Source: a virus. Taken from it: 64,000 nucleotides of DNA. Both the position numbers and the translations under genes were made by a program. The DNA lies in IMG/VR virus record IMGVR_UViG_3300031237_000251; one strand, given 5' to 3'. Shown in pieces: positions 31,424-59,852 of the stretch. Under the pieces are notes generated by a model that did not search any database, was not told the DNA's origin, and saw only the letters and a list, made by a program, of their open reading frames with translations. Each line of letters opens with the position of its first letter. The first letter of the stretch is position 1.

Positions 31424-31455
31424 GGATCACCCGTTGGGAAGTGGTAACGGGTGCC

Positions 31456-31484
31456 GAACCTATGTGACTGCCGGCGCGACGCAA
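31456..31484 (-). promoter_or_regulatory. Phage late-promoter motif, copy 2
   Basis: TTGC-GTCGCGCCGG-CAGTCACATAGGTTC. Confidence 0.7.
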
Positions 31485-31520
31485 GCAGCTATGCCCACGC
31501 CGGCAGCTATACCCACGCCG
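31485..31520. repeat. 18-bp tandem duplication covering the stop codon of the adaptor gene
   Basis: GCAGCTATGCCCACGCCG / GCAGCTATACCCACGCCG. Confidence 0.7.
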
Positions 31521-32175: not shown

Positions 32176-32177
32176 CG

Positions 32178-32606: not shown

Positions 32607-32617
32607 TCCCGGTAGGC

Positions 32618-32643
32618 AAAGGGAAGGGCCGAAGCCCTCCCCC
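32618..32643 (-). terminator. Terminator after the capsid and decoration genes
   Basis: Minus strand GGGGAGGGC-TTCG-GCCCTTCCC-TTT. Confidence 0.7.
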
Positions 32644-32649
32644 TATTCA

Positions 32650-33129: not shown

Positions 33130-33184
33130 GATGGGCTCCTATGTGGGTTCAACAGAGGCGGGCCGGATCACCCGGCCCGGCCCA

Positions 33185-34477: not shown

Positions 34478-34511
34478 CTACAGCTCCTAATCAGTTCAGT
34501 CGGGAATGGGC

Positions 34512-35564
34512 TCACAAGCTCCGGTTGAGGAATTCCTCGATCTGAGCCGGGGTCATGTTCGCCATTGCGTCCGCCATGTCCGGGGCGCTCAATTTGGCGA
34601 GCGCTTCATCACGCGAGGCCGGCCCGGCCGTGCCGCCCGGGATATCCGAGAGGCTGCCCGGTACCGGCGCACGCGCCTTGGCCATGGCTTGCTTGGCGGC
34701 TTCCTTCGCTGCTGCGTCGTCGGCCGCCGGTTGAGTCTTTCCAGCCGTTCCCTTGAACTGATCGAGCAGCTCGATCACCTCGGCCGCGCTGCCTTTCTGC
34801 AGAACGGTCTCGATCCCGGCCCGGGCAAAGCTCGGTTGAGCCTTGATCCAGTTCGCCAGCTCCTGGCTTTCGGCAATGGAGTCGGCGTCCGGGTGCTTCT
34901 CGTAGATCGCCCGGAAGTGCGCCTCGGTGGCGGCGGCCTGCTGCCGTTGCAGATCGGCCTCCTGCTGCTGTTGCAGTGGGGCCAGGGCCGCTTTCACCTT
35001 CTCGTCCACCAGGGCTTGCACCCGTTGATCCACCAGGGACTGCACCCCCTTGGCGATCGCCTCTTCGGAGAAGTCCCCGAACAGGTCAGGGTCTGCACCC
35101 TGGTCGATCGCCTGCTCGGCGATGGCAAGGTTCTGGTCAGCCTGGGTCGGGGCCTGGCCGGCATCGGCGCGTTGCTGGGCCTGGGCCTTGATGGCGTCCA
35201 GTTCCTGCAGTGCCGCTTGGGCCTTGTCCCGCCATTGCTTCTCCCCTTCCCGCGCCTCGATGAGCTTTTCGTAGGGAATCGTGTGCTTGCCGTCCTTCGC
35301 CAGGATCACGGCGCTGGCCGGGTCCGTGGCTGCAGGCGGCTGCCCCGCTGGATCAGTGGAGGGGTTCTCGGTGGTCGGCGCAGCACCTGGGGTCTGAGCT
35401 TCGGGAGCAGGGGTAGCGCTGGGCGCGCTGCCAGTGTCCGGGGTACCGCCTGCGGCGGCTCCGGTATCGCCCAATTCGGTCAGCTCCAAGAGCTGGGCCG
35501 CCTGTTCGGGAGTCAGGTTTCCATCCGGTGCGTGCTGCTGGAAAAACTCTGCTGTGGTTGTCAT
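34512..35564 (-). CDS. Capsid scaffolding protein
   Basis: Ala/Gln-rich coiled protein between portal and capsid; IPYEKL motif; start ATG 35564 preferred. Confidence 0.75.
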   Translation of the reverse strand: MTTTAEFFQQHAPDGNLTPEQAAQLLELTELGDTGAAAGGTPDTGSAPSATPAPEAQTPGAAPTTENPSTDPAGQPPAATDPASAVILAKDGKHTIPYEKLIEAREGEKQWRDKAQAALQELDAIKAQAQQRADAGQAPTQADQNLAIAEQAIDQGADPDLFGDFSEEAIAKGVQSLVDQRVQALVDEKVKAALAPLQQQQEADLQRQQAAATEAHFRAIYEKHPDADSIAESQELANWIKAQPSFARAGIETVLQKGSAAEVIELLDQFKGTAGKTQPAADDAAAKEAAKQAMAKARAPVPGSLSDIPGGTAGPASRDEALAKLSAPDMADAMANMTPAQIEEFLNRSL

Positions 35565-35668
35565 ACCTATCCCGCCACATATCGCCGTGGCCGCATGGGG
35601 GTTCATGGACGCCCAGCAGGGGCCAGCTGCCAGGCATTCGGTGGGCGCCTTGCCTGCCGATGCGTGGC

Positions 35669-35697
35669 GAACTTATGTGACTGGCGGGGGTACGCAA
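35669..35697 (-). promoter_or_regulatory. Phage late-promoter motif, copy 3
   Basis: TTGC-GTACCCCCGC-CAGTCACATAAGTTC, immediately downstream of the portal terminator. Confidence 0.7.
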
Positions 35698-35711
35698 GCG
35701 CGCCGGGTATG

Positions 35712-35737
35712 AAAAGCCCGCACTCGGCGGGCCTTTT
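35712..35737 (-). terminator. Terminator after the portal gene
   Basis: AAAAGCCCG-CACTCGG-CGGGCCTTTT. Confidence 0.7.
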
Positions 35738-35738
35738 C

Positions 35739-38039: not shown

Positions 38040-39310
38040 ACTCGCCAGTCGGGTGGCGGGGCTTCGTCGTAGTCGGTATCGAAGGTGTTTTTCATGAGCG
38101 GCACGGCCTGGCCGATGTAGCGGAACATATCGGCGCCATGGCTGAACTCATCGTGCAGTGGAGCCATCGGCTCGCCGGTCTTGGTGTGGATGTCTCGCCG
38201 ATACCGTTTCAGGCACTCCAGCAGCCGGGCCGTCTTGTTCTTGTCGAAGTAGCAGCGTGGGAACAGCATGCGGGCCGCCTTGATGCCTTCCTCCACGCTG
38301 GTTGCAGCCTGCACCACGACTTCTCGGCGCCCCATGGCACGCAGTTGCTCCTCGGTGCTCTTGCCGGTCTGGAAGTTACGGGTGCGGCCATCGTGTGGCA
38401 GGTAGTCGGTGCCCCAGCGATAGGGCCGCTTCTCCAGCTGGGCGACATACCAGTCCAGCGTGCGGTGGCTGTCCTCGATGTAGTCGATAAGCCGCACGTC
38501 CTGAGGGCCGCGCTGGACCATGCCGATGGTCATGGCGTCGTTCCAGCCGAGATCCCAGATGGTGTGCACCGGCAGGGTCGGGTCGTATGGCACGGGACAG
38601 ACGCGGCCATCGGCATATAGCGCCTCGATCTCGTAGCGGTAGATGGCGCCCTCGGCCACGGTCCGAGGTTTGCCTTCCCAGATGTGCTCGTAGTCCTCCT
38701 TCGAGCTACCACGCTTGGCCTTCAGGCGCTCCTGGTTCAGGACTTCGGGAAACCAGGGGTTGTCCCGCCAGTTGATTTCGCAAACCCAGGTATCGTCGCT
38801 GGGGGTGGCGATGAAGCGGACATAGGTTTCATCGGTGTCCATGTCCGGGTTGAGGGTGAGCCAGATCTCGCTACCTTCCTTGCGGATGGTGGGAATCAGT
38901 ACGTCCCAGCTCTTCTTGCTGACGCCGTGCGCCTCCTCCACCCACACGATGTCGACACCCTCGAACGACTTGATGGAGTCGACGGTATGGCTCTGCAGGC
39001 CGGTGAACAGGAACAGCGATCCATTGGCACCGCGGATCTCGGTATCGAGCACCTCGTAGAACGACTCCATTCCCAACTTGACCACCTGGTCCTTGAGCAG
39101 CCGGTGCACGGAGTCGCGCATGGACTTCTGCACCTCCCGGGCGCAGAGAATGCGCAGCGGTCTGTCCGCGGCGATGGTCAGCAGCACGCCGGCCACGCTC
39201 CACGACTTGCCGCCTCCGCGACCTCCATGCATGACCTTGTAGCGGCGAGGATCGAACAACGGAGACAGCTTCTCCGGTAGCCGTAGTCTGGAAATCGGAG
39301 GCTCGATCAT
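38036..39310 (-). CDS. terL: Terminase large subunit (PBSX family)
   Basis: Walker A HGGRGGGKS, Walker B VWVEEA, nuclease WDLGWND and HGADMFRY. Confidence 0.93.
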   Translation of the reverse strand: MIEPPISRLRLPEKLSPLFDPRRYKVMHGGRGGGKSWSVAGVLLTIAADRPLRILCAREVQKSMRDSVHRLLKDQVVKLGMESFYEVLDTEIRGANGSLFLFTGLQSHTVDSIKSFEGVDIVWVEEAHGVSKKSWDVLIPTIRKEGSEIWLTLNPDMDTDETYVRFIATPSDDTWVCEINWRDNPWFPEVLNQERLKAKRGSSKEDYEHIWEGKPRTVAEGAIYRYEIEALYADGRVCPVPYDPTLPVHTIWDLGWNDAMTIGMVQRGPQDVRLIDYIEDSHRTLDWYVAQLEKRPYRWGTDYLPHDGRTRNFQTGKSTEEQLRAMGRREVVVQAATSVEEGIKAARMLFPRCYFDKNKTARLLECLKRYRRDIHTKTGEPMAPLHDEFSHGADMFRYIGQAVPLMKNTFDTDYDEAPPPDWRV

Positions 39311-39960
39311 TCGTCGTCATCCTCCGGGTGTGGCCGTGGCTTCACAAACTCCAGTGCGATCCTGGCGCCAGCGCTGCCGCCCTCCGGAATCGCGCTCTTG
39401 GCGTCCAGGCCGAATGCCTGGCGCTGCATGTCCACGCACACCCGCAGGGAGTCCGCCAGCGCCTTCATGGTCTTGGCTCGCTCCGGCAAGGAGATGATCC
39501 GCTGGTACAGGTCGTTGAGCTTGTCGCGGCCGTGCTCGTCCTCATCCCTGAGCAGGTCGCCCAAGGCCTCGAGCAGCTCGACGTTCTCCCGGCCGGCTTG
39601 CAGCTCAAGCTCGTCCAGCAGGCGCATGGCGATAGTCTTGGCCCGCTGGATATCTCGCCGCTGCCCGAGCAGAACCTCAGCTATGCCCTGTGCATTGGCT
39701 TCGATAACCTGCCGCTCGGCGACCTTGGTTTCCATGGATACCGGCGTGGATACCGCCGCTTTGGATACCAGTGCATCCGCCTTGGCATGGATCTTCGCGG
39801 ACAGGTCGCGCTCCCATCCGTCACGCTTTGCACGCTTGTTGATGGCTCCGTGGGATATGCCGTGCTCGGCTGCTATCTGGCGCAAGGTCTTGATGCCTGC
39901 CCGATAGTCCAGCTCGATGCGCTCCCAATCCGGCGCTGTGTTTTCGGGCTTCTCGCTCAC
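39307..39960 (-). CDS. terS: Terminase small subunit
   Basis: GTG 39960; PDWERIELDYRAG...IAAEHGISHGAINKRAKRDGW HTH; overlaps terL. Confidence 0.85.
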   Translation of the reverse strand: MSEKPENTAPDWERIELDYRAGIKTLRQIAAEHGISHGAINKRAKRDGWERDLSAKIHAKADALVSKAAVSTPVSMETKVAERQVIEANAQGIAEVLLGQRRDIQRAKTIAMRLLDELELQAGRENVELLEALGDLLRDEDEHGRDKLNDLYQRIISLPERAKTMKALADSLRVCVDMQRQAFGLDAKSAIPEGGSAGARIALEFVKPRPHPEDDDE

Positions 39961-39988
39961 CCTGCCCTCCTGTATCAGATAGGAAGGC

Positions 39989-40017
39989 GACGCTATGTGA
40001 CTGGCACGGCCTGGCAA
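39989..40017 (-). promoter_or_regulatory. Phage late-promoter motif, copy 4
   Basis: TTGC-CAGGCCGTGC-CAGTCACATAGCGTC, after terminator 40025-40047. Confidence 0.7.
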
Positions 40018-40024
40018 CGGGCAT

Positions 40025-40047
40025 AAGAAACCCGGCGCGTGGCCGGG
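40025..40047 (-). terminator. Terminator after the fibre gene
   Basis: Minus strand CCCGG-CCACGCG-CCGGG-TTTCTT. Confidence 0.65.
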
Positions 40048-40076
40048 CTGGTCGAAGCAGATGAATCAGCCGCGCC

Positions 40077-41993
40077 CTACGATGACGGAAACGGGGTCAC
40101 GGTCACTGCCACGTCCTGGCTGAACGTGGCGCACTGGCCGCCGCTGATCGCCGCAATGGTGGCGTCTGCGCGCTTGCTCCAGTCGGAGACGTTGTAGCTC
40201 AACACGCTCGGCGTCATGTCAGGGGCGGAGAGCGTCAGGACTTTGCCATCCTGGCTGAACGACAGCCTGGAGTATGGATAGGTCGGGAGTGCAACCGGGC
40301 CAGCGAGCTTGTCGCCGGTGAGGTTATTGTAGATCAGCAGGTACGGCGCCGAGGCCACCGACACCGCCATCAGCTCACCGTTCGGGCTGTACGCGACCGC
40401 CACCGCGTTGGACGCGGGCAGTGCAGCGAACGGCATGGACTTGTACACGCTCGAGTTGGGGTCCAGCGCGTAGGTCGACAGGTACGGGGCCCCGCCGTGT
40501 GCTACAGAGAACATTTCATCGTGAGGATCGAAGGCAACCGCGTTGGCGTACCCTGGCAGTGCCGTGTCCACCGCCGGCTTGGCCGCCCAGGTAGCCGTGT
40601 CATAGATCGCGAGGTACGGGGTTTCAGCGGTCCCAAGGACGACGGTATTTCCAGCCGGGTTCACGGCAATAGCAGTTGGCGCCGCCGATAGCGCAGGTCC
40701 TCCCGTTGCCGCCCAGGACGCGGTATCAAACACCGTCAGGTACGGGCTGGCCGAATGGATGACGTACAGCCGCCCACTGTTCGGGCTGAACGCCACGTCC
40801 GTGATCGTTTCGCTCCCGTTGCCTGCCCACTCAGCCAGCAGTTTCCACCCCTTCACCCGGAATACGGACAGGACGTGGGTCAGAGGGCCGGATGCGCTCT
40901 CGCGGGCCAGCGCAATCATCGTCCGGTCAGGGCTCACCGCGATCTTGAGTACCTTCGTGCTCACCAGCGCCGGTAGCGCGATCTCGCTCCAGTCGCTCGG
41001 GCTGAACGCCCGTAGATACGGGGAGGCGCCGACGCCGACGTACAGGGCGCTCGGCAGGCTGTAATCGGCCAGCCGGCCGGAGAGCGTCCAGATGTTCTCG
41101 GCGATGCGCTTGAGCTTGGCCACCCCGTAGCGTTCCGCGATCCGTGGGTCGCAGTCCCCCGGCAGGCGCAGCGTCACGCCACTGCCCGCGGCGAACTTGA
41201 CCGCGCCCGCGCCGGCCTGCTCGATCTCCAGCTCGGCATTGGCAGCCCAGCCGCCCGTCGCCTGGTCAGCGATGGTCAGCACCGCCGGGTCTGCCGTCTC
41301 GGATACCAGATAGCTGCTGTCATGGCTGCTGGTCAGGCTCACGGCGGTCGTGGTCGAGGTGGCCACCGCACTGTTGCCCCCGCCGCCGCCACTGCTGCCG
41401 CCCTCGGCAATGCCCGCCAGCTTGGTCTTCTCGGCATCGGTGAAGGCGTTGGTATCCGCGTTCGCCTCGTACAGTGCCTTGACCTGGGCGGCAGTGAGGC
41501 TGGTCGCGCTGGCTTGCGGCTTCCAGGCCGCATCGCTGGCATCCCATAGGTAGCGCATCACATCGGCGCCGGTTCCGGCATCCACGTCCGCATAGTCGCC
41601 TGCGATCGGCGAGGCCACGACGGCCTGCAGGGCGGCGAGGTCGACATAGGTGCCCTTGAAGTGGCTGCTCTCCAGGCCGGCGAGCTTGGTTTTCTCGGCG
41701 GTGGTGAAGTCATTGGTCGACAGGCCTTTACCGTCTACGGCGTCGACTTTCGCAGCCAGGGCCTGGGTCATGGCCTGGGTGGTGACGAATTCCGCGTGGT
41801 TGTAGGCCTGCTCGTGTGCCTTGACGGCCGCCGCTCCAGCTCCGCCCTTCTCCACCAGCACCCAATCGGCGGCGGAGGCAGTCCCCTTCGCCATGTACTG
41901 GTCGCCGCTCTCGGTGTCGGTGTAATGGGCAGTGAGGCTGGGGGGCACAGACGTGGGCGCGCCCGCTCCCTGTACGATGTGCTGGACGGTCAT
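40077..41993 (-). CDS. Fibre / receptor-binding-like protein with a C-terminal beta-propeller
   Basis: DGKGLSTNDFTTAEKTKLAG fibre motif (twice), Gly linker, repeated [ST/A]PYL blades. Confidence 0.7.
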   Translation of the reverse strand: MTVQHIVQGAGAPTSVPPSLTAHYTDTESGDQYMAKGTASAADWVLVEKGGAGAAAVKAHEQAYNHAEFVTTQAMTQALAAKVDAVDGKGLSTNDFTTAEKTKLAGLESSHFKGTYVDLAALQAVVASPIAGDYADVDAGTGADVMRYLWDASDAAWKPQASATSLTAAQVKALYEANADTNAFTDAEKTKLAGIAEGGSSGGGGGNSAVATSTTTAVSLTSSHDSSYLVSETADPAVLTIADQATGGWAANAELEIEQAGAGAVKFAAGSGVTLRLPGDCDPRIAERYGVAKLKRIAENIWTLSGRLADYSLPSALYVGVGASPYLRAFSPSDWSEIALPALVSTKVLKIAVSPDRTMIALARESASGPLTHVLSVFRVKGWKLLAEWAGNGSETITDVAFSPNSGRLYVIHSASPYLTVFDTASWAATGGPALSAAPTAIAVNPAGNTVVLGTAETPYLAIYDTATWAAKPAVDTALPGYANAVAFDPHDEMFSVAHGGAPYLSTYALDPNSSVYKSMPFAALPASNAVAVAYSPNGELMAVSVASAPYLLIYNNLTGDKLAGPVALPTYPYSRLSFSQDGKVLTLSAPDMTPSVLSYNVSDWSKRADATIAAISGGQCATFSQDVAVTVTPFPSS

Positions 41994-42439
41994 GCTGCTG
42001 CTCCAGTGGTTAGAACTTGATTGGCGCCATCGGTGAGAAGGTTGCCGCTGGCATCGGTCAGGGCATTGGCGGGAACAGACGGGGTAGTCCCCTGCTCCAG
42101 GGCGGCGACGCGAGACGACAGCGAGGCGATCGAATCGGCCTGGTTGGCGAGCTTGGTGCTTTGCGAGGCGTCGGATTGCTGCAGGGCGGCGAGCTGCTGG
42201 GCCTGTGCGGTGAGCGCCTGCTGCAGGGCGGCGATGGATTGGCCCTGGCTGGTGACAGTCTCGGCCAGCGCCTCAACGAGGCCGGCGGCGGTGCCCGCGG
42301 GATCAGCGCCCACGTCAGCGACCTTGAGCACGACGGCGCCCGTCTGGCCGTTCACCGACTCGACACCGCCCGACCGGCCGCGGAGGCCGCCGCTACCGAC
42401 GATGACGCCGCCGCTGCGCTGGATGACGATCAGGCCCAT
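41990..42439 (-). CDS. Short fibre-like coiled-coil protein
   Basis: VESVNGQTGAVVL motif and heptad repeats. Confidence 0.65.
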   Translation of the reverse strand: MGLIVIQRSGGVIVGSGGLRGRSGGVESVNGQTGAVVLKVADVGADPAGTAAGLVEALAETVTSQGQSIAALQQALTAQAQQLAALQQSDASQSTKLANQADSIASLSSRVAALEQGTTPSVPANALTDASGNLLTDGANQVLTTGAAA

Positions 42440-43041
42440 ACCGTCACCTCCGGGGCGATCACCACCCGGCTCGGGCCGATCACGGCGACCACGGCGCCAT
42501 CGGGCCGAATGGCCTCCAGATCGTAGGTGCCACTGCTCCAGGCGATCGCCGCCGTCTGGTCCGCATCCAGGCCGATGACGAAGGCGCTGTTGGCCACGTC
42601 CACCTCGACCGTGCCATCCGCCTGGTCGGCCGGGTCGGAGCTGAATGACAGCAGGACAGCGCCGCCGATGCGGTCGCGGATCTGCATGCGGGCCTTCCAG
42701 CCCTCCAGATCGGCCGGCCTGGGATAGACCAACACGCTCGGCGGCGCGAAAGCCCTGGCGCCCACCATGTCCAGCTGGTCGAACTCCAGGGTATCGGCGT
42801 CAACGACGAGGGGCGTCCAGTATTCGCCCTCGGGCGTGTTGAGCTCGGCCGGCGCGCGGGTGCGCTCGATGCGCACGGCCCAATTGTCCGGCACGCCGTG
42901 GCCGGTAACAGTCAGGCGCACCGGGGCCTTGCTCGGCATGGCAGTGATGTTGCGGTAGACCAGCTGCTCGTCGTGGTAGCCGAACGACTGCGCCAGGGTC
43001 TTACCCTTGGTAATGGTCAGGTCGAAGGTGGGGGCGGTCAT
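42430..43041 (-). CDS. Phage hypothetical structural protein (Ig / BppU-like)
   Basis: GWKARMQIR...YDLEA motif; first gene behind late-motif copy 5. Confidence 0.65.
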   Translation of the reverse strand: MTAPTFDLTITKGKTLAQSFGYHDEQLVYRNITAMPSKAPVRLTVTGHGVPDNWAVRIERTRAPAELNTPEGEYWTPLVVDADTLEFDQLDMVGARAFAPPSVLVYPRPADLEGWKARMQIRDRIGGAVLLSFSSDPADQADGTVEVDVANSAFVIGLDADQTAAIAWSSGTYDLEAIRPDGAVVAVIGPSRVVIAPEVTVWA

Positions 43042-44101: not shown

Positions 44102-44342
44102 GGACAATCTCCTTTTCGGCCTTCTGGTAGATGGTCCGCTGCTCAATACGGATATTCCCGATCGCGCTCAGCGTCTGCCGGGTTACGTCGGCGACCAGGG
44201 CGCGCTGGTGTTCCTGCTGCTGGATCGTGACGAGCTCCGCGCTGTCGGCCTGCCAGTCGCGGATCTGCCAGCCACAGGCGAATCCGGCGCCGGCCAAGCC
44301 CGCATAGGCCAGCAGGCGCAGTCCATCCACGGGGAAGATCAT
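43971..44342 (-). CDS. i-spanin (Rz-like)
   Basis: N-terminal TM, coiled region, CRVPADGVQLLNAAR; ATGA overlap with the endolysin. Confidence 0.8.
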   Translation of the reverse strand: MIFPVDGLRLLAYAGLAGAGFACGWQIRDWQADSAELVTIQQQEHQRALVADVTRQTLSAIGNIRIEQRTIYQKAEKEIVRDPVYINCRVPADGVQLLNAARSGADGRGAAAGVPADGGDTDR

Positions 44343-44833
44343 TGCTGCGCACTCATGCACTGCTGGTAGACGCGCTGACGGTCAGCCCACAGTCCGGGGC
44401 AGATCCGGTTGCCCGGCCTGGAGCAGTCGTAGCCATTCGAGAACTTGAACAGCAGGATCGCCTCACAAGCGCCGCGATAGTCCTGGGCGCTCAGGCGCTT
44501 GACGATGGTCGAGCCGCAGAAGCGCCCCGGGCCGATGTTGTGCGCCAGGGCCAGGTAGGCGTCGTACTCGGCCTGGTAGAGCGGGACGTGAACGCACTGT
44601 TTGACTGCCCCCTCGAACTCCGTCACCTCGCGCAGGCTGCGGTTGATCGCAGCGACCGGCGTGATGGTGTCACCCATCCGCACGCCGGAGGTCGAGCCAA
44701 AGCCGAGGGTCGGCAGGGATTCGCCGCGGGTGGGGTCCGGGTAGGCCTCGGGGCTGAAGCCCTCGCGGGTCAGGATACCGGCGAAGGCCGCCGCACTGAG
44801 GGTTAGCGCGGTAATGGCGATTCGACCCTTCAT
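44339..44833 (-). CDS. Endolysin, GH24 lysozyme, possibly SAR-type
   Basis: Hydrophobic N-terminus then REG...YPD...TLGFG catalytic motif, AHNIG. Confidence 0.9.
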   Translation of the reverse strand: MKGRIAITALTLSAAAFAGILTREGFSPEAYPDPTRGESLPTLGFGSTSGVRMGDTITPVAAINRSLREVTEFEGAVKQCVHVPLYQAEYDAYLALAHNIGPGRFCGSTIVKRLSAQDYRGACEAILLFKFSNGYDCSRPGNRICPGLWADRQRVYQQCMSAQQ

Positions 44834-45057
44834 TTCGTGCTGACCTCCTGCTGGCGTGCCTTGCGCGCCCGAAGTTCGCGGCGCAGCAGGAATGCCATCT
44901 GCATCAGCACATAAAGCGCGGTCAGGACGCTGACGATGATGCTGGCCTGGTCCGCCAGGCTCGGTCCGCTGGTAAGAACAACGCCGCTGGCGGCAACGGC
45001 CGGTGCGGATTTGCCCGCCTCGATCAGGACATTCGTGGTGCTGGTGTTATCGCTCAT
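44830..45057 (-). CDS. Holin
   Basis: 75 aa with hydrophobic helices and a basic C-terminus, upstream of the endolysin. Confidence 0.75.
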   Translation of the reverse strand: MSDNTSTTNVLIEAGKSAPAVAASGVVLTSGPSLADQASIIVSVLTALYVLMQMAFLLRRELRARKARQQEVSTK

Positions 45058-45121
45058 GGGGTACAGCCTATGCTGGGGTCGATGATCGGCTCCGCATAGG
45101 AGCCCATGCAGTGCCACGGCG

Positions 45122-45150
45122 GACGCTATGTGACTGCATGGGCCAGACAA
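45122..45150 (-). promoter_or_regulatory. Phage late-promoter motif, copy 6
   Basis: TTGT-CTGGCCCATG-CAGTCACATAGCGTC, upstream of the holin. Confidence 0.7.
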
Positions 45151-45217
45151 CCCTCTTCAACACATTGGGAGAGCCAGCGGGACGACAGCCCCTGATCGCC
45201 GCACCGCTCCCCCGACC

Positions 45218-45439
45218 TCACAGACTGCAGGCCCGGCGGTATCCCTCCCGGCACCAGTTGTCCATCCACCGAACCCTGCGAAGCCCCGGGCGCAACGCCT
45301 CTTCCCAACTCGAACCCCGGTAACGGCGCATGCGGACCGTCTGCCACTTCAGACCTCGCTTCTCAGCCCAATCGATTGCTGTCTTGGTCACCCCACCCAA
45401 GGTCACCAACGTGTTGGTTGCGCAAATCGTGTTACTCAT
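45218..45439 (-). CDS. Small basic HTH-like protein, candidate late regulator
   Basis: GGVTKTAIDWAEKRGLKWQTVRMRRYRGSSWEEAL; last early gene before lysis. Confidence 0.6.
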   Translation of the reverse strand: MSNTICATNTLVTLGGVTKTAIDWAEKRGLKWQTVRMRRYRGSSWEEALRPGLRRVRWMDNWCREGYRRACSL

Positions 45440-45459
45440 CCCCTTCCCCCTCCACAACA

Positions 45460-45909
45460 TCATCGACTCCCAACTTCCAGCACCTGGAGCGGCACGATCC
45501 GGACACGCACACAGGGCGTCTCGGCGTACCGCTTGGAGATATGCGCATCGACTACCTGCACGTCGTCCTTCCAGACCACCCCGTTGAGGCCGTCGAAAAT
45601 GGCCTTGGTCACGTTGTCCGCATCGGGCTTCTTCGCCGGAAGCAGCTCGCCGGCCAGCGCCATGGACTTCCGTTTTTTCGACATGGATTGAGGGATGCTA
45701 AGCAGTATCCGCAGTTCGACCAGGACAGGCCCTTCGAGCAATGCGCGCTCGCCCATGGCCTCCTTGCCTGCCAGGGCAATCAGGCCCTCGTAGTTGGCGG
45801 TTTTCCCCGGCGTGTACATGCGCGCAAAGCCATTCCGAGCACTGACCCTGGGCCGTCCCTTCCCGATGGGCTCGCCAGGAACCACGAAACTGATCGGTGT
45901 CATGCTCAT
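45460..45909 (-). CDS. rusA: RusA-family Holliday junction resolvase
   Basis: VPGEPIGKGRPR...YTP, KKPDADNVTKAIFDGLNGVVWKDD. Confidence 0.9.
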   Translation of the reverse strand: MSMTPISFVVPGEPIGKGRPRVSARNGFARMYTPGKTANYEGLIALAGKEAMGERALLEGPVLVELRILLSIPQSMSKKRKSMALAGELLPAKKPDADNVTKAIFDGLNGVVWKDDVQVVDAHISKRYAETPCVRVRIVPLQVLEVGSR

Positions 45910-46640
45910 ACAGCCCGCACCTCCCGATGGATCCGCAGGCTGGCCAGCAGCTGGTTGCGGGCCTGGACTGCGGTGGCATCGACGAGCCCCTGCCGCTCCA
46001 GGCGCTCACGCATCTTGCGTTCGGCAAACTCGTCAGCCAGCTCGCGAATACTCCTGCCAAGGTCATGCTCGAGGGCACACACAACCGGGGCGTCCAGCGG
46101 CTCGCCATTGGCATAACGGCGAGCCATGGTCAGGTACTGGAATGCAAAGCGCTTGCGCAGACTCTCGTCGGTCAGCTCTCCACGGTGCAGGTCATACAGC
46201 CCAGTCGCAGCTGCTGCGGCCTTCACGACCAAGTGCCTATAGCGCCGTGCCAAGGCCTGATGAAATGCGCTTTCGATATCGGGCAAGCCAATGGCCTCGG
46301 GCTGGACGTTCAAGCACAGCCCTCGGAATTCAGGCGCAGACGGCGGCCATTTGTACGTCAGCGCGACGAGCATGTTCAGTCCGTGCGCAATCTGCCGACC
46401 GTTGATCCCCCTCAGAGCCGAAGCCCAGGCGCTAGCGGGGTCAGCTGATGCGCCAAAACTCGACGTCCAGCGGTGGCCGTAGAGCTCCGTCATCTTCAGC
46501 CATAGGCGCTCCAGCAGCTTGTCGGGCAGCTTCTCGGCGGGCGATGTCGGCTTTGACTCGGTCAACGGCGGAAAGAGAGCCTCGCTGATTAGGTCCCCGA
46601 TGGGCCTGGCTATGCTCGGGTTGTTCGGTTCTTGGTCCAT
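45906..46640 (-). CDS. Phage replication protein P-like (helicase loader)
   Basis: LWLKMTELYGHRWTSSFG...WPPSAPEFRGLC; overlaps the 3' end of the O-like gene. Confidence 0.75.
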   Translation of the reverse strand: MDQEPNNPSIARPIGDLISEALFPPLTESKPTSPAEKLPDKLLERLWLKMTELYGHRWTSSFGASADPASAWASALRGINGRQIAHGLNMLVALTYKWPPSAPEFRGLCLNVQPEAIGLPDIESAFHQALARRYRHLVVKAAAAATGLYDLHRGELTDESLRKRFAFQYLTMARRYANGEPLDAPVVCALEHDLGRSIRELADEFAERKMRERLERQGLVDATAVQARNQLLASLRIHREVRAV

Positions 46641-47406
46641 GGCTTGTGCTCCGACCGGCTTGTTCGTAACGCGTGGCACGCTTGATCGTCTGTGCCAGCT
46701 CGTGCTCCCACTGGCCTTGGGATTGGTGTTTGTCAGGACGGTTGACCCAGTACGACCGAAACTCCATCAGGCGCTCATCGGTCAGGTCGCCTGGGCTGAT
46801 GCCGTTGCGAGTGATCGTTGCCTTCCAGCCTCGCGGACTTGGTGTCCAGTCGTCGTGCATCGGGAAGCGCAGATCGGTTTCAGCTCTCACGCGCGAAGAA
46901 GAAGTAGGAGGATTAGGAGGAAGACCGGAGGTGGGCCCCACCTCTGGCCCCACCTCCGGAAAACCTGCGGCCCCAGCTTCTTCGTCAACTCCGCTGAAAG
47001 CCTGTAAATCCGGGGCTTCTGGCATTTCCTCTAAGGCCCCACCTATGGCCCCTCCTGGTGCCAACCTCTGGCCCCACCTCCCCGAGACGGATTTGTCCGA
47101 CGATGCGAGGGGGAGTCTGAAAACGAAGGGGCTTATCTCCGGGCAAGCGATCAGCATCCCAATCCGAATCAGGTAGTCGATCGCGTAACGGCATTCCTTC
47201 CTGCTTGCCTTATGGGCAGGCCTTCCAGGGGACGCGGGTGTACTCAGGAGCTCTCGAAGCATCTGCTCACTCAGGCGCCTCTCCAGACCAGCGATACCCG
47301 TCTTGAAGTCCATGCAGCGGCGAATGCCGCAATAGACTTTCAGCAGGTGATGCGACTCATCGAAGAGTGCATTCCACTCGGCGTCATTGATCAGGAAGCC
47401 CGGCAC
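46441..47406 (-). CDS. Phage replication initiator O-like, with a DnaT-like domain
   Basis: FPMHDDWTPS...LMEFRSYW...QWEHELAQ; follows cII. Confidence 0.8.
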   Translation of the reverse strand: MPGFLINDAEWNALFDESHHLLKVYCGIRRCMDFKTGIAGLERRLSEQMLRELLSTPASPGRPAHKASRKECRYAIDYLIRIGMLIACPEISPFVFRLPLASSDKSVSGRWGQRLAPGGAIGGALEEMPEAPDLQAFSGVDEEAGAAGFPEVGPEVGPTSGLPPNPPTSSSRVRAETDLRFPMHDDWTPSPRGWKATITRNGISPGDLTDERLMEFRSYWVNRPDKHQSQGQWEHELAQTIKRATRYEQAGRSTSHGPRTEQPEHSQAHRGPNQRGSLSAVDRVKADIARREAARQAAGAPMAEDDGALRPPLDVEFWRIS

Positions 47407-47982: not shown

Positions 47983-48041
47983 CAAGCCAAATTCAAGCAT
48001 GCTTGTATTTATTAAGCAAGCATGCTTTGCAAGCCTCCTTG
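47983..48041. promoter_or_regulatory. Rightward operator cluster (OR-like)
   Basis: CAAGCATGCTTG (47994-48005), CAAGCATGCTTT (48017-48028), CAAGCCTCCTTG (48030-48041) between divergent cro and cI. Confidence 0.8.
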
Positions 48042-48053
48042 TACATTGAGCCA

Positions 48054-48734
48054 ATGAACATCACTGAACGAATTGAAAAGCTCGTACTCGCTAGAAGGCC
48101 CCAAATCGGGGTCCGCGGCGTAAAGCGGGATATCTCTAAGACCTGCGGTATCAGCTACGAAGCGGTGCGCCAGTGGTTTGCAGGGGATACTGGAAATATC
48201 AAGAACGAGAACCTGCTCGCCATCGCTGCAGGCTATGACACGACTGTTGATTGGCTCCTATCGGGAGAGGGCGAGCCTCCTTTCAGGAGTGCTGAAGAGC
48301 CCAGCAACGTCCTGCCTGTGACTCAACCAGAGCGCCTCTATCGCTACCCAGTTGTCAGCGAAGTGCAGGCCGGCGCGTGGACTGATGCCGTTCAGCCCTA
48401 TGAGCCGGGTGCAGAAGATCAATTTGAACTGACCGATTACCAGGCCCGAGGTCCTGCCTTCTGGCTGAGGGTCAACGGCGACTCGATGACCTCTCTCACG
48501 CCGCCCAGCATTCCAGAGGGCTGCTTCGTGCTGGTCGATACCGGCTTAACCGCACAACCAGGCGATCTGGTGGTCGCCAAGCTTGATACCGAAGAGAAAG
48601 CCACCTTCAAGAAGTTGGTTTCCGATGCTGGCCAGCTCTATCTCAAGCCGCTGAACCCTGCTTATCGAGTGATCCCCATCGACGGAAATTGCCGACTGAT
48701 CGGGGTTGTGAAGGAAGCGAAAATGAAACTATGA
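48054..48734 (+). CDS. cI: CI-like repressor (HTH plus S24 autopeptidase)
   Basis: HTH ISYEAVRQW; cleavage-site-like VQAGAW; VNGDSM and ATFKKL catalytic motifs. Confidence 0.92.
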   Translation: MNITERIEKLVLARRPQIGVRGVKRDISKTCGISYEAVRQWFAGDTGNIKNENLLAIAAGYDTTVDWLLSGEGEPPFRSAEEPSNVLPVTQPERLYRYPVVSEVQAGAWTDAVQPYEPGAEDQFELTDYQARGPAFWLRVNGDSMTSLTPPSIPEGCFVLVDTGLTAQPGDLVVAKLDTEEKATFKKLVSDAGQLYLKPLNPAYRVIPIDGNCRLIGVVKEAKMKL

Positions 48735-49095: not shown

Positions 49096-50754
49096 TTAGA
49101 ACGTCTCCCAGTCCGACTCTGCGGCAACCGGTGCAGCCACCAGTTTGGTCTTCGCAGTAGTCGGCCTCGTTGGAGCAGCAATCCTCATAGATGGGCGATA
49201 CGATTCGCTGCTGCCAACCTTGAAGACTGCAACTGCAGCACGCAACTCTTCCGCCTGCTCAACCAGTGACTGTGATGCAGTCGAAGCCTCCTCGACCAGA
49301 ACAGCATTCTGATGCGTCACCTGATCCAGCTGGACCACGGCCGTATTGATTTGACCAATGCCGGAGCTCTGCTCTTCCGATGCTGCCGCAATCTCTTGCA
49401 TGAGGTCGGTCACGCGCTTCACCGCCTCAACAGCCTCGCCGATCGTGCTACCCGCCTCCTCGACGAGCTTTGAGCCGACACCAACTCGCGATACCGACTC
49501 GTGAATCAGGTCATGAATCTCCTTGGCCGCCGCTGCGCTACGCTGGGCAAGGGTGCGGATCTCTCCAGCCACTACGGCAAAACCGCGTCCATGCTCACCC
49601 GCACGCGCCGCCTCAACGGCTGCATTGAGCGCCAGGATGTTGGTCTGGAACGCAATACCCTCAATCACGCTGATGATTTCGGTCACTTTGGTCGAGCTGT
49701 TCGAGATCCCTTGCATGGTCTCAACGACCCGACCAACCACCTCGCCACCACGCTGCGCGATATCCGAAGCGGAAATGGCTAGCGCGGTCGCCTGCTTCGC
49801 ATTATCGGTATTGTGGTGAACCGTGCTCGTCAGTTCCTCCATACTCGAAGCTGTTTCCTGCAGCGAGGCAGCTTGCTCCTCTGTCCGTTGGGACAGATCG
49901 GTATTGCCATTCGCAATCTGCTCACTTGCAGACGCCACTGCCTCCGCATTCTGGCGAACACTAGACACAACCTTGACCAGGCTCGCCTGCATGTCCTTCA
50001 GGGCTCGCAGCAGTTCGGCAGTCTCATTCTCACCACTGGCATCGAACTGCAGACTCAAATCCCCATTGGCCACCGAGCGCGAGATCTCCACGGCCTTGCT
50101 TAGCGGACGAGTAACGGAGCGGATAATCCACATAGCCATGAATACAGCGATCACCACTGCCGCAATACCACACAGCCAGATGATGGCTTTCATGCTGGCA
50201 ATTTCGCCGAACGCCTGATTCGCAGACTCCTCCATCGCATTGTTCTGAAAAGCGATCAGGTCATCCAGCGTCGCAAGGTAAGCCAGTTGGGCTGGGCGCA
50301 CCTCGCCCAACAACACTCCCTTAGCCTCATTGATCTTTCCATCGACAATCAGGCCAACGAATTTAGCTTCCAATGCCACGAACTTGCGGCTTTTGTCCAC
50401 GGAGTTGGCAAGCAATGCCTTCCCTTTTTCAGTTCGAACTCGCGGCTCAAGCACTCCCCACTGCTCGGTGATGCCCTTGTGGGCCAACTCGACCTGCTTG
50501 AGTTGCTCCCTGATATCCGCAGGGTCATCCATGAGCAGCGTGTTACGCAGGTAACGAGCAATCTGATTTAAACCGTCCTTGGCATTGTTGAGCGCAGCGA
50601 TTTTCACATAACGGTCGTGCACCACCGTGTCGAAGGTGGCGTCTACATGATTGGCCTTGAATAGTGAGACACCGCCCATCAGGATGATCAGTAGTGTCAG
50701 GATGCCAAACCCGAGCTCGAGTCTGGTTGAGATTTTCATGTCGTTGAGATTCAT
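49096..50754 (-). CDS. Tar/Tsr-like methyl-accepting chemotaxis protein with C-terminal pentapeptide DWETF (MCP2)
   Basis: 2 TM, periplasmic helical sensor, HAMP, RTEEQAASLQETASSMEELT methylation helix, QTNILALNAAVEAARAGEHGRGFAVVA tip; ATG 50754 preferred. Confidence 0.93.
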   Translation of the reverse strand: MNLNDMKISTRLELGFGILTLLIILMGGVSLFKANHVDATFDTVVHDRYVKIAALNNAKDGLNQIARYLRNTLLMDDPADIREQLKQVELAHKGITEQWGVLEPRVRTEKGKALLANSVDKSRKFVALEAKFVGLIVDGKINEAKGVLLGEVRPAQLAYLATLDDLIAFQNNAMEESANQAFGEIASMKAIIWLCGIAAVVIAVFMAMWIIRSVTRPLSKAVEISRSVANGDLSLQFDASGENETAELLRALKDMQASLVKVVSSVRQNAEAVASASEQIANGNTDLSQRTEEQAASLQETASSMEELTSTVHHNTDNAKQATALAISASDIAQRGGEVVGRVVETMQGISNSSTKVTEIISVIEGIAFQTNILALNAAVEAARAGEHGRGFAVVAGEIRTLAQRSAAAAKEIHDLIHESVSRVGVGSKLVEEAGSTIGEAVEAVKRVTDLMQEIAAASEEQSSGIGQINTAVVQLDQVTHQNAVLVEEASTASQSLVEQAEELRAAVAVFKVGSSESYRPSMRIAAPTRPTTAKTKLVAAPVAAESDWETF

Positions 50755-50903
50755 ATCAGTCTCATTGGGGAATAACAGTCGATAGCGATCGCCAGCGTCA
50801 CTGGCTCGCCTGAGCTTCTTAAGAAGGGAAAGGTTGTGGGGGTTGATTCCTGCGTCTTGGATCGATGGACACCAAGACCTGAATATCTTTGTTATGCCCG
50901 ACT

Positions 50904-50929
50904 GATCGGCATACATGAGGAATTCTTAA
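50904..50929 (-). promoter_or_regulatory. Sigma28 (FliA)-type promoter for MCP2
   Basis: TTAAG-N14-GCCGATC versus consensus TCAAG-N14-GCCGATA. Confidence 0.65.
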
Positions 50930-51924: not shown

Positions 51925-52389
51925 CGCTAGATCGTCCCTGGTAGTGTCATGACTGCAATTTAACCGTGTCTTGTCATATTTCCGACAAATACAGCCTGAA
52001 ATTGTGACAAATCACACATAGATCCAATGGGTAATCACCAGGCAGCCGCCCCTCCAGGCCTCTACTCCATCGGGAAGAGATAGCAAAAAGACCATTACTG
52101 ATTCGTACCTAAAAAGCGGCTGCAGCCCCGTGCCGGGCGTTGATAAATCCGCTGTAGGTCAACTACGGCCTGTCGTGCACGGTATCTGCCGGCCTGTAGA
52201 GCTATGCCTCCATGCGCGTGCCCGGATAGTGCCGAGCCTGCCCACTAACCATTAGGCGAATTGCTACAACACCTGCAAGCGCCCTCAATAGGCCATCCTC
52301 GCGAGCCACGCTAGGGGCTATGAAGCGCCATCCGGGCTCGCGATGTTCATCCGTGCGCCGAACGGCGCTGTTTCACCCCTGGAGATAGC

Positions 52390-53676
52390 ATGACTGAGAA
52401 GAAAGCGCAGTTGATCATCGAAGGCCGGCAGCCGGTCGAGCTTCCAGTCCTGTCTGGCACACTCGGACCAGATGTCATCGATGTGCGGGCTTTATCGAGT
52501 ACGGGATGCTTCACCTACGACCCGGGCTTCATGTCCACCGCCTCCTGCTCGTCGAAGATCACCTACATCGACGGCGACAAGGGCATCCTGCTGCACCGTG
52601 GCTATCCCATCAAGCAGTTGGCCGAGCGTTCTGACTACTTGGAAACATGCTACCTGCTGCTGAACGGCGAACTGCCGGACGCCGCGCAGAAGACAGAATT
52701 CGTCGCAAAAGTGAAAGACCACACGCTGGTCCACGAGCAGATGCGCAGCTTCTTCAACGGGTTCCGCCGCGACGCCCACCCCATGGCTGTACTATGCGGT
52801 GCAGTTGGGGCACTCTCGGCCTTCTACCATGACTCCCTGGACATCACTAATCCGCAGCACCGGGATATTTCCGCGATTCGCCTGATAGCCAAGATGCCAA
52901 CCCTGGTGGCCATGGCCTACAAGTATTCGCATGGCCAACCGATGATGTACCCGGTCAACAGCCTGAGCTATGCAGAAAACTTCCTGCATATGATGTTCAA
53001 TACGCCAGCCCAGTCGAAACCAGTGAGCCCTGTGCTGGCCAGGGCCATGGACCGCATCTTCATCCTGCACGCCGACCACGAGCAAAACGCATCGACTTCC
53101 ACTGTGCGTTTGGCCGGCTCCTCGGGAGCCAATCCGTTCGCCTGTATCGCTGCGGGCATCGCCGCGCTGTGGGGCCCGTCGCATGGTGGCGCTAACGAAG
53201 CCGTGCTGCGGATGCTCAATGAGATCGGCGACGTGAAACACATCGAGCAGTACGTGGCCAAGGCCAAGGACAAGAACGACCCGTTCAAGCTGATGGGATT
53301 CGGTCACCGCGTCTACAAAAACTTCGACCCGCGCGCCAATGTCATGAAGCAGACCTGCGACGAGGTACTTAGCGAGCTAGGCATCAACGACCCGCTGCTG
53401 GAGTTGGCGATGAAGCTGGAGGAGATCGCCCGCCACGACGAATACTTCATCGAGCGCAACCTCTACCCGAACGTCGATTTCTACTCGGGAATCATCCTCA
53501 AGGCAGTCGGGATCCCGACCAACATGTTCACCGCCATATTTGCCCTAGCTCGGACCGCCGGCTGGATCTCGCACTGGAAGGAAATGGTCTCCGGACCGTA
53601 CAAGATTGGCCGCCCGCGCCAGCTGTACACTGGGCACACACAGCGCGATATCCTCCCGCTCGCTCAGCGTCGCTGA
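52390..53676 (+). CDS. gltA: Type II citrate synthase
   Basis: [47 protein letters not shown] and YPNVDFYSG with the catalytic His, His and Asp intact; RBS GGAG. Confidence 0.96.
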
Positions 53677-53758: not shown

Positions 53759-53790
53759 AGAAAAGGCCCCGACTAATGCCGGGGCCTTTC
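53759..53790. terminator. Bidirectional terminator between gltA and the flxA-like gene
   Basis: GAAAAGGCCCCG-ACTAATGC-CGGGGCCTTTC. Confidence 0.75.
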
Positions 53791-53804: not shown

Positions 53805-54266
53805 TTAAGCAGTGGCAGATACCATATTGCCCGAGCTGCCAGAGCCTCCGCTCTTCAGTGCTTCGGAGAGCTGGCCGTAGGCCTGCTGTATAGATGCGTT
53901 GAGAGTGACGATCTGCGCCTGCAGCGATGTCTCGGTAATGGTCTTGGTTTGCTCGTCCTGGTTAGACGCCTCGACCTGCTGCAAGCGCTGCTGCAACTCC
54001 TGCAACTGCTTCTGCAGTTTAGCGATCTGCTCCTTGAGTGCTTTGACAGTGGGATCCTGGCTGTCGCTGCTATCGCTGGATTCCGAACTACCCCCGATGC
54101 CGCCTGCTTTGCCACTACCGGCCAGCGTCTGGACGTTAATGGTTGCGCTCGAGTTTGCGCCGCCACTCGGCCCCCGGGAGTTACTGCCCTGGACATTGCT
54201 CACATCGCCGGGGGTCTGGCTGTACGAAGAAACAACTTGGGGCGTTACTGCGGCGATACTCACCAT
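53805..54266 (-). CDS. FlxA-like family protein
   Basis: Ser/Gly-rich N-terminus, coiled coil VKALKEQIAKLQKQLQELQQRL...LQAQIVTLNASI. Confidence 0.65.
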   Translation of the reverse strand: MVSIAAVTPQVVSSYSQTPGDVSNVQGSNSRGPSGGANSSATINVQTLAGSGKAGGIGGSSESSDSSDSQDPTVKALKEQIAKLQKQLQELQQRLQQVEASNQDEQTKTITETSLQAQIVTLNASIQQAYGQLSEALKSGGSGSSGNMVSATA

Positions 54267-55812: not shown

Positions 55813-55867
55813 CAAGCTTGCTTGCACATTAAAAGCAAGCATGCTTTTATAAATACAAGTCTGCTTG
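55813..55867. promoter_or_regulatory. Leftward operator cluster (OL-like) and early promoter
   Basis: CAAGCTTGCTTG (55813-55824), CAAGCATGCTTT (55836-55847), CAAGTCTGCTTG (55856-55867); same consensus as OR. Confidence 0.8.
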
Positions 55868-58061: not shown

Positions 58062-58856
58062 ATGGAAATCGTAACCGTGCGAGCCAGCTCGCTTGCGGAG
58101 CTATTCGACTGCCCGGCGCGCTGGGAAGCCAAGCATTTGCTCGGCATGCGTAACCCGTCTTCCGGGGCAGCCCTACTCGGCACTGCGGTCCACGCCTCTA
58201 CCGCCCTGTTCGACCAAGCGCAGCTTGATGGCAATCCCATCAACGCCTGCGAGGCCGCTGGGGCTCTGGTCGATGCGCTCTATCACCCGGATCAGGAAGT
58301 GGATTGGGAAGACTCCAGCCCCAAAGCAGTCGAGCCAATTGGTTTGGCATTGCATGCCCGCTACTGCAGCGAGATTGCACCGAAGCAGGACTACATCGGG
58401 ATCGAGGTCGCTTGCGAGCGTCTCGAAATCACCGACATCGGCCTTGCCCTGACGGGAACCACCGACCGGATTCGCCGGGTGGACGGCCAGCTCGGGATTG
58501 CCGATCTCAAGACTGGCGGGCGGGCGGTAGGCAGCGACGGGCATGCCGTCACCCAAGGCCACGGCCCGCAATTGGGGGTGTACGAGTTGCTCGCCGAGTT
58601 CGCCCTTGGCCAGCCGCTCACGGCTCCGGCCCAGATCATCGGCATGCAGACCGGCAAGACGGCCAACAGCCAGAAGGTAGGAATTGGCACCGTCGAGAAT
58701 GCCCGCGCTGCCCTGGTCGGCGATGAAGACTCCCCCGGCCTGCTCCAGCACGCCGCCCGAATCATCCATGGCGGGTCGTTCTACGGAAACCCGAAGTCGG
58801 TGCTGTGCTCAGCCCGCTACTGCCCCCGCTACCAATCCTGCCGCTTCAAGGGCTGA
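58062..58856 (+). CDS. PD-(D/E)XK exonuclease (Cas4/AddB-like, Cys cluster)
   Basis: RASSL...CPARW, GTTDR...IADLKTG, QLGVY, CSARYCPRYQSC. Confidence 0.85.
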   Translation: MEIVTVRASSLAELFDCPARWEAKHLLGMRNPSSGAALLGTAVHASTALFDQAQLDGNPINACEAAGALVDALYHPDQEVDWEDSSPKAVEPIGLALHARYCSEIAPKQDYIGIEVACERLEITDIGLALTGTTDRIRRVDGQLGIADLKTGGRAVGSDGHAVTQGHGPQLGVYELLAEFALGQPLTAPAQIIGMQTGKTANSQKVGIGTVENARAALVGDEDSPGLLQHAARIIHGGSFYGNPKSVLCSARYCPRYQSCRFKG

Positions 58857-58871
58857 CCACAAGGAGCCGAC

Positions 58872-59852
58872 ATGTCCAGTACCGCCACTCTAAATCAGCT
58901 CAAGAATCCTGCTCCACGCGAGGCATCTATGCCCATGGTGACCATGGGCTTCGGCAGCCTGCAAAGCTTTGAGCTGATGCAGCGCGCTGCCAAAGTTCTC
59001 GCTGGCTCGACCCTCGTCCCGACCGCCTACCGCGCTTTCAAAGAGGTGAAAGAGTTCGGACAGGTTGTCGGTTATGAGCCGAACGCAGCAGGCCTTCCAA
59101 ACTGCATCGTTGCGCTAAACATGGCGCAGCGTATGGGCGCGGATCCCCTGATGGTGATGCAGAACCTTCACATCATTGAAGGACGACCGAGTTGGTCGAG
59201 CACCTTCATCATCGCCGCAATCAATAACTGCGGTCGCTACAGCCCTCTGCGCTTCGAGCTGAGCGAGCCAAGCAGGCCGTTTGAGCTCGAGTACACCGCG
59301 GTTGAGTGGGTTTCCCAGCCCGGTAGCAACAAGAAGAAGAAACGTGACATCCAAAAGAAGGCCACCGTGCGCCATCAGACCTGCAAAGCCTGGGTGATCG
59401 AGAAGGAAACCGGTGAGCGCCTTGAGTCTCCCATCGTGTCTATTCAAATGGCGATTGACGAAGGCTGGCTGACGAAGAATGGCAGCAAGTGGCAAACGAT
59501 TCCCGAATTGATGCTGCGCTACCGCTGCGCGAGCTTCTTCGGTCGTCTCTATGCCCCCGAGTTGCTGATGGGCTTGCAGACGGTCGAAGAAACGCAGGAC
59601 TTCATCGAGGCCGAACCAGATGGTCGAGGAGGCTACTCCGTCAACCTCGACCATCTGCAGAGTCGGGCCGGGGATGAGCCCGCGCCGCCACCAGTGCCAG
59701 ATGCCGATGATGGGCATACCACCCTCCCCCATGAGCCAGCCGAGCAGGTGAACCTGCAGACCGGCGAGATCACCAGGCAACCGGAACCGGTAGCAGAGAC
59801 CGTCGGCCTGGCCGAGGAGCCTGGTACCACCGTCAGCCTGCAGCTGGAGTAG
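58872..59852 (+). CDS. RecT-like ssDNA annealing protein
   Basis: NCIVALNMAQRMGADPLMVMQNLHIIEGRP, WQTIPELMLRYRCASFF; follows the exonuclease. Confidence 0.75.
   Translation: MSSTATLNQLKNPAPREASMPMVTMGFGSLQSFELMQRAAKVLAGSTLVPTAYRAFKEVKEFGQVVGYEPNAAGLPNCIVALNMAQRMGADPLMVMQNLHIIEGRPSWSSTFIIAAINNCGRYSPLRFELSEPSRPFELEYTAVEWVSQPGSNKKKKRDIQKKATVRHQTCKAWVIEKETGERLESPIVSIQMAIDEGWLTKNGSKWQTIPELMLRYRCASFFGRLYAPELLMGLQTVEETQDFIEAEPDGRGGYSVNLDHLQSRAGDEPAPPPVPDADDGHTTLPHEPAEQVNLQTGEITRQPEPVAETVGLAEEPGTTVSLQLE

Follow-up and report, generated by a model that had tools for sequence, protein, structure and literature searches.

A citrate synthase gene carried in the cI-OL slot of an F116-like Pseudomonas prophage, with possibly altered NADH regulation

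Introduction

Why would a temperate phage carry a citrate synthase gene, and does the encoded enzyme differ from that of its host in a way that matters? Citrate synthase gates the entry of carbon into the TCA cycle, and in Gram-negative bacteria the enzyme is restrained by NADH. Laboratory variants that are insensitive to NADH lead to higher citrate production in P. fluorescens (PMC4178029), and in the Lenski experiment fitness was affected by a single change that desensitised the enzyme (PMC4718724). In view of these precedents, a phage-borne version could shift the fitness of a lysogen on acetate or at low oxygen. The question is raised by a stretch of 64,000 nucleotides (IMG/VR record IMGVR_UViG_3300031237_000251), referred to here as the window, which is a metagenome-derived assembly (bin) with run X1 as its likely source. 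From the letters alone, an earlier note had read in it an intact citrate synthase gene carried by a prophage, and had proposed that the product might be an auxiliary, perhaps NADH-insensitive, enzyme that boosts TCA flux. Here we describe the gene, its setting and its relatives, and weigh what these indicate about its function.

A full-length gltA gene

The open reading frame at 52390..53676 (+) is gltA, which on the evidence of the TIGR01798 profile, an alignment to PDB entry 6ZU0 and its catalytic residues encodes a phage-borne type II citrate synthase of 428 aa (P0001). Among the NCBIfam profiles it scores 771 bits with TIGR01798, for which the curated cutoff is 485, and 768 bits with NF004126. 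Its alignment with 6ZU0, the NADH-sensitive, hexameric GltA of P. aeruginosa, is gap-free over residues 1-427 at 83% identity (E 2.6e-255), and the two proteins are alike in length, N-terminal beta-sheet domain and catalytic residues. Using the residue numbering of E. coli GltA throughout, verified against a Citrobacter GltA, we find the catalytic residues H264, H305 and D362 all intact and invariant in the alignment, and the substrate residues R314, R387 and F383 likewise present and invariant. As such, the earlier reading of a full-length GltA with intact catalytic motifs holds. The N-terminal beta-sheet domain of about 50 residues is absent from the dimers of type I citrate synthases; residues 1-50 of P0001, which make up this domain, match 6ZU0 without gaps, and the N-terminal beta-sheet of 6ZU0 is documented in PMC9765439. 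By these alignments, P0001 is classed as a member of the type II (large, hexameric) GltA family.

Three variant motifs had been pointed out, and all of them are found in P0001: KDHTL at 109-113, YPVNSL at 187-192 and NTPAQS at 204-209. At the corresponding positions the E. coli chains 1NXE and 4G6B read TRHTM, YPRNDL and TPCE, and P. aeruginosa GltA reads KNHTM, YPRNDL and NTPCE, which shows that the canonical YPRNDL and NTPCE had been given correctly. A tblastn search of the whole 64,000-nt window yielded no homologues of sdhCDAB or sucA, in agreement with the remark that gltA lacks an sdhCDAB neighbour there.

The prophage and its immunity region

The phage structural and packaging region occupies 10092..43000 (-). 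The nearest genome compared, G001, has a prophage on contig C29 with 96-98% identity to the structural genes at approximately 10-43 kb, and at 33.2-39.2 kb there is 75% DNA identity to the terminase, portal and capsid genes of the F116-like P. aeruginosa phages H66, LKA5 and PA8. Next to it lie the genes for a phage lysozyme, a lambda P-like and a DnaT/O-like replication protein (44339..47406, -; Pfam Phage_lysozyme, Phage_lambda_P and DnaT), followed by a cro-like gene (47760-47963, -) and a cI-like repressor gene (48054..48734, +), the 226-aa product of which combines an HTH with an S24 peptidase (Pfam HTH_3 and Peptidase_S24; phrog_4, transcriptional repressor, 3.4e-45). Between the latter two, pattern search and sequence reading revealed OR, with three operators of the CAAGCATGCTTG type (47994..48041). 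Three further operators of this type form OL (55813..55867), which comes after a terminator-like hairpin (55769-55789) and before the early-left genes. Across the window the CAAGCATGCTTG-type pattern is matched 11 times, where 2.5 matches would be expected, and every one of the 11 belongs to the OR or the OL cluster. Beyond OL, the early genes encode a PD-(D/E)XK exonuclease and a RecT-like annealing protein (58062..59852, +; Pfam PDDEXK_1; phrog_561, RecT-like, 1.1e-81), as well as an SMC-like ATPase; the window does not reach the right end of the prophage. The element is an F116-like lambdoid prophage of Pseudomonas, and the claim that gltA is carried by a prophage is borne out by structural, lysis, replication, cI, exonuclease and RecT genes on both sides of it. 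Unlike the F116-like structural genes, the immunity and cargo region at 47.7-56.2 kb has 0 matches among 50,697 phage records.

Since the operator triplets OR and OL flank the stretch with gltA, the gene occupies the slot between cI and OL, which in lambda is the position of rexAB. It is established that in lambdoid phages exclusion or defence genes are typical of this slot, and this would favour a non-metabolic role for gltA, be it in defence, in superinfection exclusion, or as a decoy subunit that perturbs the host hexamer. Such a role is very unlikely, as PADLOC models detect no defence systems in the slot and give weak coiled-coil matches only, the catalytic residues are all intact, and purifying selection, discussed below, is strong over the whole protein.

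Several other observations concern the ends of the element and its immunity genes. Positions 1-10000 form a low-GC island (0.45-0.50) of unannotated ORFs, within which an integrase-family gene at 4363-5214 is 98% identical to a sequence on contig C30 of G001. The segment at 5365-5967 matches G001 twice, at a tail-fibre end (C29) and at an early-gene end (C16), and this double match might resemble an attachment-site duplication. Moreover, a contig of X1 with a chromosome-like depth of 1,519 carries a cI-like gene that is approximately 83% identical (48333-48727) and joined directly to the 50989 region, skipping the chemoreceptor gene in between. This contig suggests that the organism, or its community, has another, related immunity region.

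gltA as accessory phage cargo

In public data there are five proteins that are 99-100% identical to P0001, and all others are at most 85% identical. On three contigs from different samples (L030, L034 and L035), the phage-type gltA adjoins genes for the FlxA-like protein, a DUF1654 protein, exonuclease, RecT, the SMC-like ATPase and Arc, and on L035 a methyl-accepting chemotaxis protein (MCP) gene is also present upstream of gltA. Furthermore, contigs of the independent wastewater run X2 together span the interval from cI to beyond OL. These data bear on the suspicion that a host gene has been trapped between phage remnants, or joined to phage sequence by a chimeric metagenome assembly, for which it speaks that the window is metagenome-derived and that the right end of the prophage lies outside it. 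Such an artefact is hardly credible when identical junctions occur in the independent assemblies of L030, L034, L035 and X2, matching operator sets bracket the slot, and the depth in X1 is even over the stretch. The likeness to host gltA, moreover, runs from the start codon to 40 nt before the stop codon; as it is confined to the coding sequence, no host flank was captured along with the gene. Samples with this allele come from soil, wastewater, sludge and paddies and represent at least nine studies; the allele is therefore not a one-off.

The phage-type gltA is missing from the related prophage of G001, in which the structural genes, cI and the MCP gene are present. The only genes of this kind in the G001 genome are the host gltA (84% identical, and divergent from sdhCDAB-sucAB) and prpC. 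That a host-type gltA normally sits with sdh, as had been stated, is confirmed by all 12 Pseudomonadaceae host-type loci compared, including that of the closest non-phage relative (P0008), in which sdhCDAB adjoins gltA; in P. aeruginosa, too, gltA lies beside sdhCDAB, whereas the gltA of the window lies in a prophage, and sdh genes are found beside gltA in none of four phage-type contigs. The gene is accessory phage cargo and, by its context, a moron.

Searching IMG/VR with P0001 gave no relative, and PHROGs v4 holds no family matching GltA. In INPHARED, the close matches are 254-kb contigs named ‘Acinetobacter phage MD-2021a’, which we rejected as they carry prpC and look bacterial; the remaining protein matches there have at most 53% identity to P0001.

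A host-type copy in the source sample

The depth of X1 is even across the stretch, at about 1,530. At gltA, this run contains a second, diverged gltA-like sequence at a depth equal to that of the phage type; at position 53007, for example, one alternative contig accounts for a depth of 1571 out of 3154 in total. X1 also contains a fraction of 0.91 of the sampled words of the host gltA-sdhCD locus of G001, and five other runs with the phage allele contain a G001-type gltA-sdhCD locus as well, from which it follows that the host is the species of G001 or one very close to it. The lysogen most likely has both gltA genes, where their placement in the same genome is based on the equal depth in X1 rather than on a closed chromosome. 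The phage gltA is therefore a copy in addition to the host gene, with 84% identity between the two enzymes. An auxiliary copy beside a host gltA-sdh locus had been supposed, and the host-type locus and the second gltA-like sequence in X1 agree with it; conversely, a sole gltA, or one identical to the host copy, had been named as evidence to the contrary, and neither is found, given the second gltA in the source sample and the identity of 84%.

Origin and selection

Maximum-likelihood analysis unites the six phage-type proteins in a clade (100% support) that is nested in the Pseudomonas GltA clade (support 95). The stem leading to it is 0.33 changes per site long, compared with 0.03 for the median tip branch. 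The phylogeny against host gltA that had been called for thus returns a separate phage clade on a long stem within Pseudomonas GltA, and by this placement gltA is to be regarded as a viral auxiliary metabolic gene of host origin. Within the clade, pairs of alleles differ by 7-16 synonymous and 0-4 non-synonymous codon differences, and dN/dS is 0.02-0.13 for those pairs that differ in protein. Between phage and host gltA, dN is 0.10-0.13, with dS near 1, compared with a dN of 0.02-0.09 for host-host pairs, meaning that the capture is old, or that the donor is unsampled. The phage protein has changed about twice as fast as the host enzymes and is now constrained; the gene is under strong purifying selection.

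Taken together, the gene is probably a working, phage-borne accessory citrate synthase gene in the cI-OL cargo slot of an F116-like Pseudomonas phage. An F116-like lambdoid temperate phage of a Pseudomonas species probably captured, long ago, the coding sequence of a Pseudomonas-type gltA alone, and has kept it in this slot of variable cargo with an upstream region, ribosome-binding site and likely hairpin terminator of its own. The lysogen would then have two type II citrate synthases, one encoded by the host gene beside sdhCDAB and the other by a phage gene outside the transcriptional control of the host.

Replacements in the NADH pocket

The earlier note had placed the variant positions near the NADH site, and alignment to E. 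coli indeed puts them in the NADH pocket. Where P0001 has D109, L112, V188, S190, A206 and Q207, P. aeruginosa GltA has N, M, R, D, C and E, the changes being N109D, M112L, R188V, D190S, C206A and E207Q. All six residues are fixed in the phage clade (6/6 alleles). Of 126 Pseudomonadaceae GltAs, none has D109, L112, V188, S190 or Q207 and ten have A206, while the usual N109, M112, R188, D190, C206 and E207 are each found in 88-96% of the 126. Not every position carries the same weight, as position 109 is variable among host GltAs, and A206 is natural in Halopseudomonas-type and Acinetobacter GltAs; the citrate synthase of Acinetobacter is still inhibited by NADH. Position 207, on the other hand, is acidic in 194 of 195 comparison sequences. 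Positions 188 and 190 covary, with R/D in most and D/R or D/K in 13 of the 195, and 207 does not covary with them. In gammaproteobacterial GltAs the two thus vary together as a charge pair, which speaks for a salt bridge next to N189, a residue of the NADH pocket; at 188 and 190 the phage clade has the neutral pair V/S. Of the 23 residues unique to the clade, five fall on NADH-site residues or directly beside them (permutation P 0.009, and 0.0014 among conserved columns), for a list of literature sites that is provisional in the part attributed to Stokell et al. 2003.

Seven pocket residues are retained in P0001, namely H110, T111, Y145, R163, K167, N189 and T204. All of these apart from T204 are listed as common to P0001 and the E. 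coli GltA of the 1NXG complex, with the same pocket architecture by alignment. H110 is the residue indicated by PMC4718724, and NADH-insensitive variants of E. coli GltA were obtained by Y145F, R163L and K167A (PMC4178029). The residues altered in these laboratory variants, and in the A258T variant of the LTEE, are unchanged in P0001 (PMC4178029, PMC4718724). Unlike them, the phage enzyme is altered on the M112/C206 side of the pocket, and M112 and C206 are both singled out in PMC9765439.

What do these replacements mean for regulation? Weakened inhibition is plausible because the clade-specific replacements line the NADH pocket as known from E. coli, and we tentatively propose that NADH inhibition of the phage enzyme may be weakened or retuned. 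It is also quite possible that gltA encodes nothing more than a further citrate synthase under normal NADH regulation, that any benefit arises through dosage or host-independent transcription only, and that the pocket changes are neutral or compensatory drift in a lineage long isolated. This would fit the seven retained residues, among them Y145, R163 and K167, whose mutation desensitises the E. coli enzyme, as well as the presence of A206 in host enzymes and the variable, covarying 188/190 pair among hosts; with an amino-acid divergence of the whole protein about twice the usual, some changes near any site are to be expected. Against drift stand the uniqueness of L112, V188, S190 and Q207 relative to the 126 Pseudomonadaceae GltAs, the near-invariant acidic residue at 207, the enrichment of clade-unique changes at the pocket by both P values, and the replacement of the very two residues, M112 and C206, that were singled out for the P. 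aeruginosa enzyme.

If feedback by NADH is weakened through the remodelled pocket, entry into the TCA cycle and the glyoxylate pathway would stay open at a high NADH/NAD ratio. A further step, which we consider less likely than not, is that a naturally NADH-blind or retuned enzyme, alone or in mixed hexamers with the 84%-identical host subunits, could make entry into both pathways independent of redox feedback in a lysogen. Were this true, it would amount to a phage-delivered override of an allosteric checkpoint which, together with the chemoreceptor and the RsmZ-like RNA described below, would form a host-reprogramming package.

Transcription signals and expression

The gene has its own ribosome-binding site, GGAG at 52381..52384 (+), 5 nt before the ATG. 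Upstream lies a region of 465 nt (51925..52389, +), the expected location of the promoter, which is conserved between contigs and near-identical across four independent ones. About 90 nt past the gltA stop codon, sequence reading identified a GC-rich hairpin at 53765..53786, consisting of GGCCCCG, an 8-nt loop and CGGGGCC, with A and T runs on either side and TTT on its 3' side. This is likely a two-way terminator common to gltA and the convergent FlxA-like gene. The RBS that the earlier note had listed is present, and the hairpin is the candidate for the terminator named there. In addition, a strong putative terminator on the + strand at 51071-51093, between cI and gltA, would block read-through from cI into gltA. 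Scanning upstream of gltA for sigma70 gave no promoter on the + strand, and a sigma28-type scan gave a single site, upstream of the MCP gene, and none before gltA. An Rfam scan of the gltA leader returned nothing, and with a fold z-score of -1.24, which is not significant, the leader has no special RNA structure.

Two paddy-soil RNA libraries (X15 and X16) contain phage-type contigs, 98-99.7% alike, on cI, the MCP gene, gltA and the FlxA-like gene; at the level of contigs, to which these data are limited, there are none on replication or recombination genes. Much of this pattern could be explained by phage mosaicism or DNA carry-over, since the DNA run X2 is also without the same modules. Because of the position of gltA, we consider its expression in the lysogen likely, and this would provide extra capacity for condensing acetyl-CoA with oxaloacetate.

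Could the gene serve the lytic cycle instead, being switched on after induction for energy and the supply of 2-oxoglutarate and glutamate, and silent in the lysogen? Auxiliary metabolic genes of phages are often active during infection, and gltA is among those reported for phages in soil viromes (PMC12016548). We regard this as improbable here, as gltA, in the interval from cI to OL, belongs to neither of the early operons and is isolated by terminator-like hairpins upstream (51071-51093) and downstream (53765-53786), with another (55769-55789) before OL. Furthermore, the gene keeps its own 465-nt upstream region, and its slot-mates, a chemoreceptor gene and the FlxA-like gene, serve the living host cell.

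Relation to known systems

A close analogy to the arrangement proposed here, an accessory enzyme gene active in the lysogen, is found in morons of the lambda rexAB type, with which gltA shares the slot, the OR and OL triplets, an accessory status in related phages, and flanking terminator-like hairpins. It differs from rexAB in that the latter is an exclusion system co-transcribed with cI, whereas the genes in the slot of the window encode an enzyme of central metabolism, a chemoreceptor and a FlxA-like protein and do not all point the same way. In the gltA genes listed for soil phages (PMC12016548), a host-derived metabolic gene is likewise found in a viral genome. Surveys of that kind list genes but not their context; in the present case the place of the gene within a temperate phage is defined, and the gene belongs to a long-branch clade under purifying selection and encodes a changed pocket. 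Neither this allele nor its immunity region has a match in PHROGs, IMG/VR or curated phage records.

A second copy kept by a temperate phage under purifying selection, with changes concentrated in the NADH pocket, would represent a natural rewiring, by a virus, of an allosteric control point in a heterotrophic host. P0001 offers a ready-made, Pseudomonas-compatible citrate synthase variant for study, and opens to direct test whether a phage naturally deregulates central metabolism.

Slot neighbours and other cargo

The slot-mates of gltA are the MCP gene, the FlxA-like gene and two DUF2845 genes. The MCP gene is annotated at 49096..50916 (-), with 50754 as its likely true start, by Pfam MCPsignal, 4HB_MCP_1 and HAMP and by phrog_8572. 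It is 98% identical to the partial gene on L035, and the PDB match of its ligand domain is marginal. The FlxA-like gene, at 53805..54266 (-), encodes a coiled-coil protein (Pfam FlxA and ATG16) and is convergent with gltA. It follows gltA on L030, L034 and L035 too, so that their linkage is constant across the metagenome contigs. In E. coli, flxA is prophage-borne and a member of the flagellar regulon.

The sigma28-like site upstream of the slot MCP gene reads TTAAGAAT-N11-GCCGATCA, at approximately 50929-50899. The element has a second MCP gene, at 8073-9578 (-), beside the tail-fibre genes. Between the lysis and structural genes, at 43605-43744 (-), lies a small RNA of the RsmZ/PrrB family (Rfam RF00166, 58 bits, where the gathering score is 44). 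The depth over 43605-43744 in the source run is about three-fold, indicating paralogues of this RsmZ-like RNA in the genome. A phage-borne sponge for RsmA/CsrA would be a second host-reprogramming cargo. Lastly, C28 and C29 of G001 carry several copies, 70-76% identical, of the region at 50984-51762, which comprises orf162 with its surroundings. The region coincides with the end of contig C6 of that genome and probably represents a family of repeated genes at which assemblies break.
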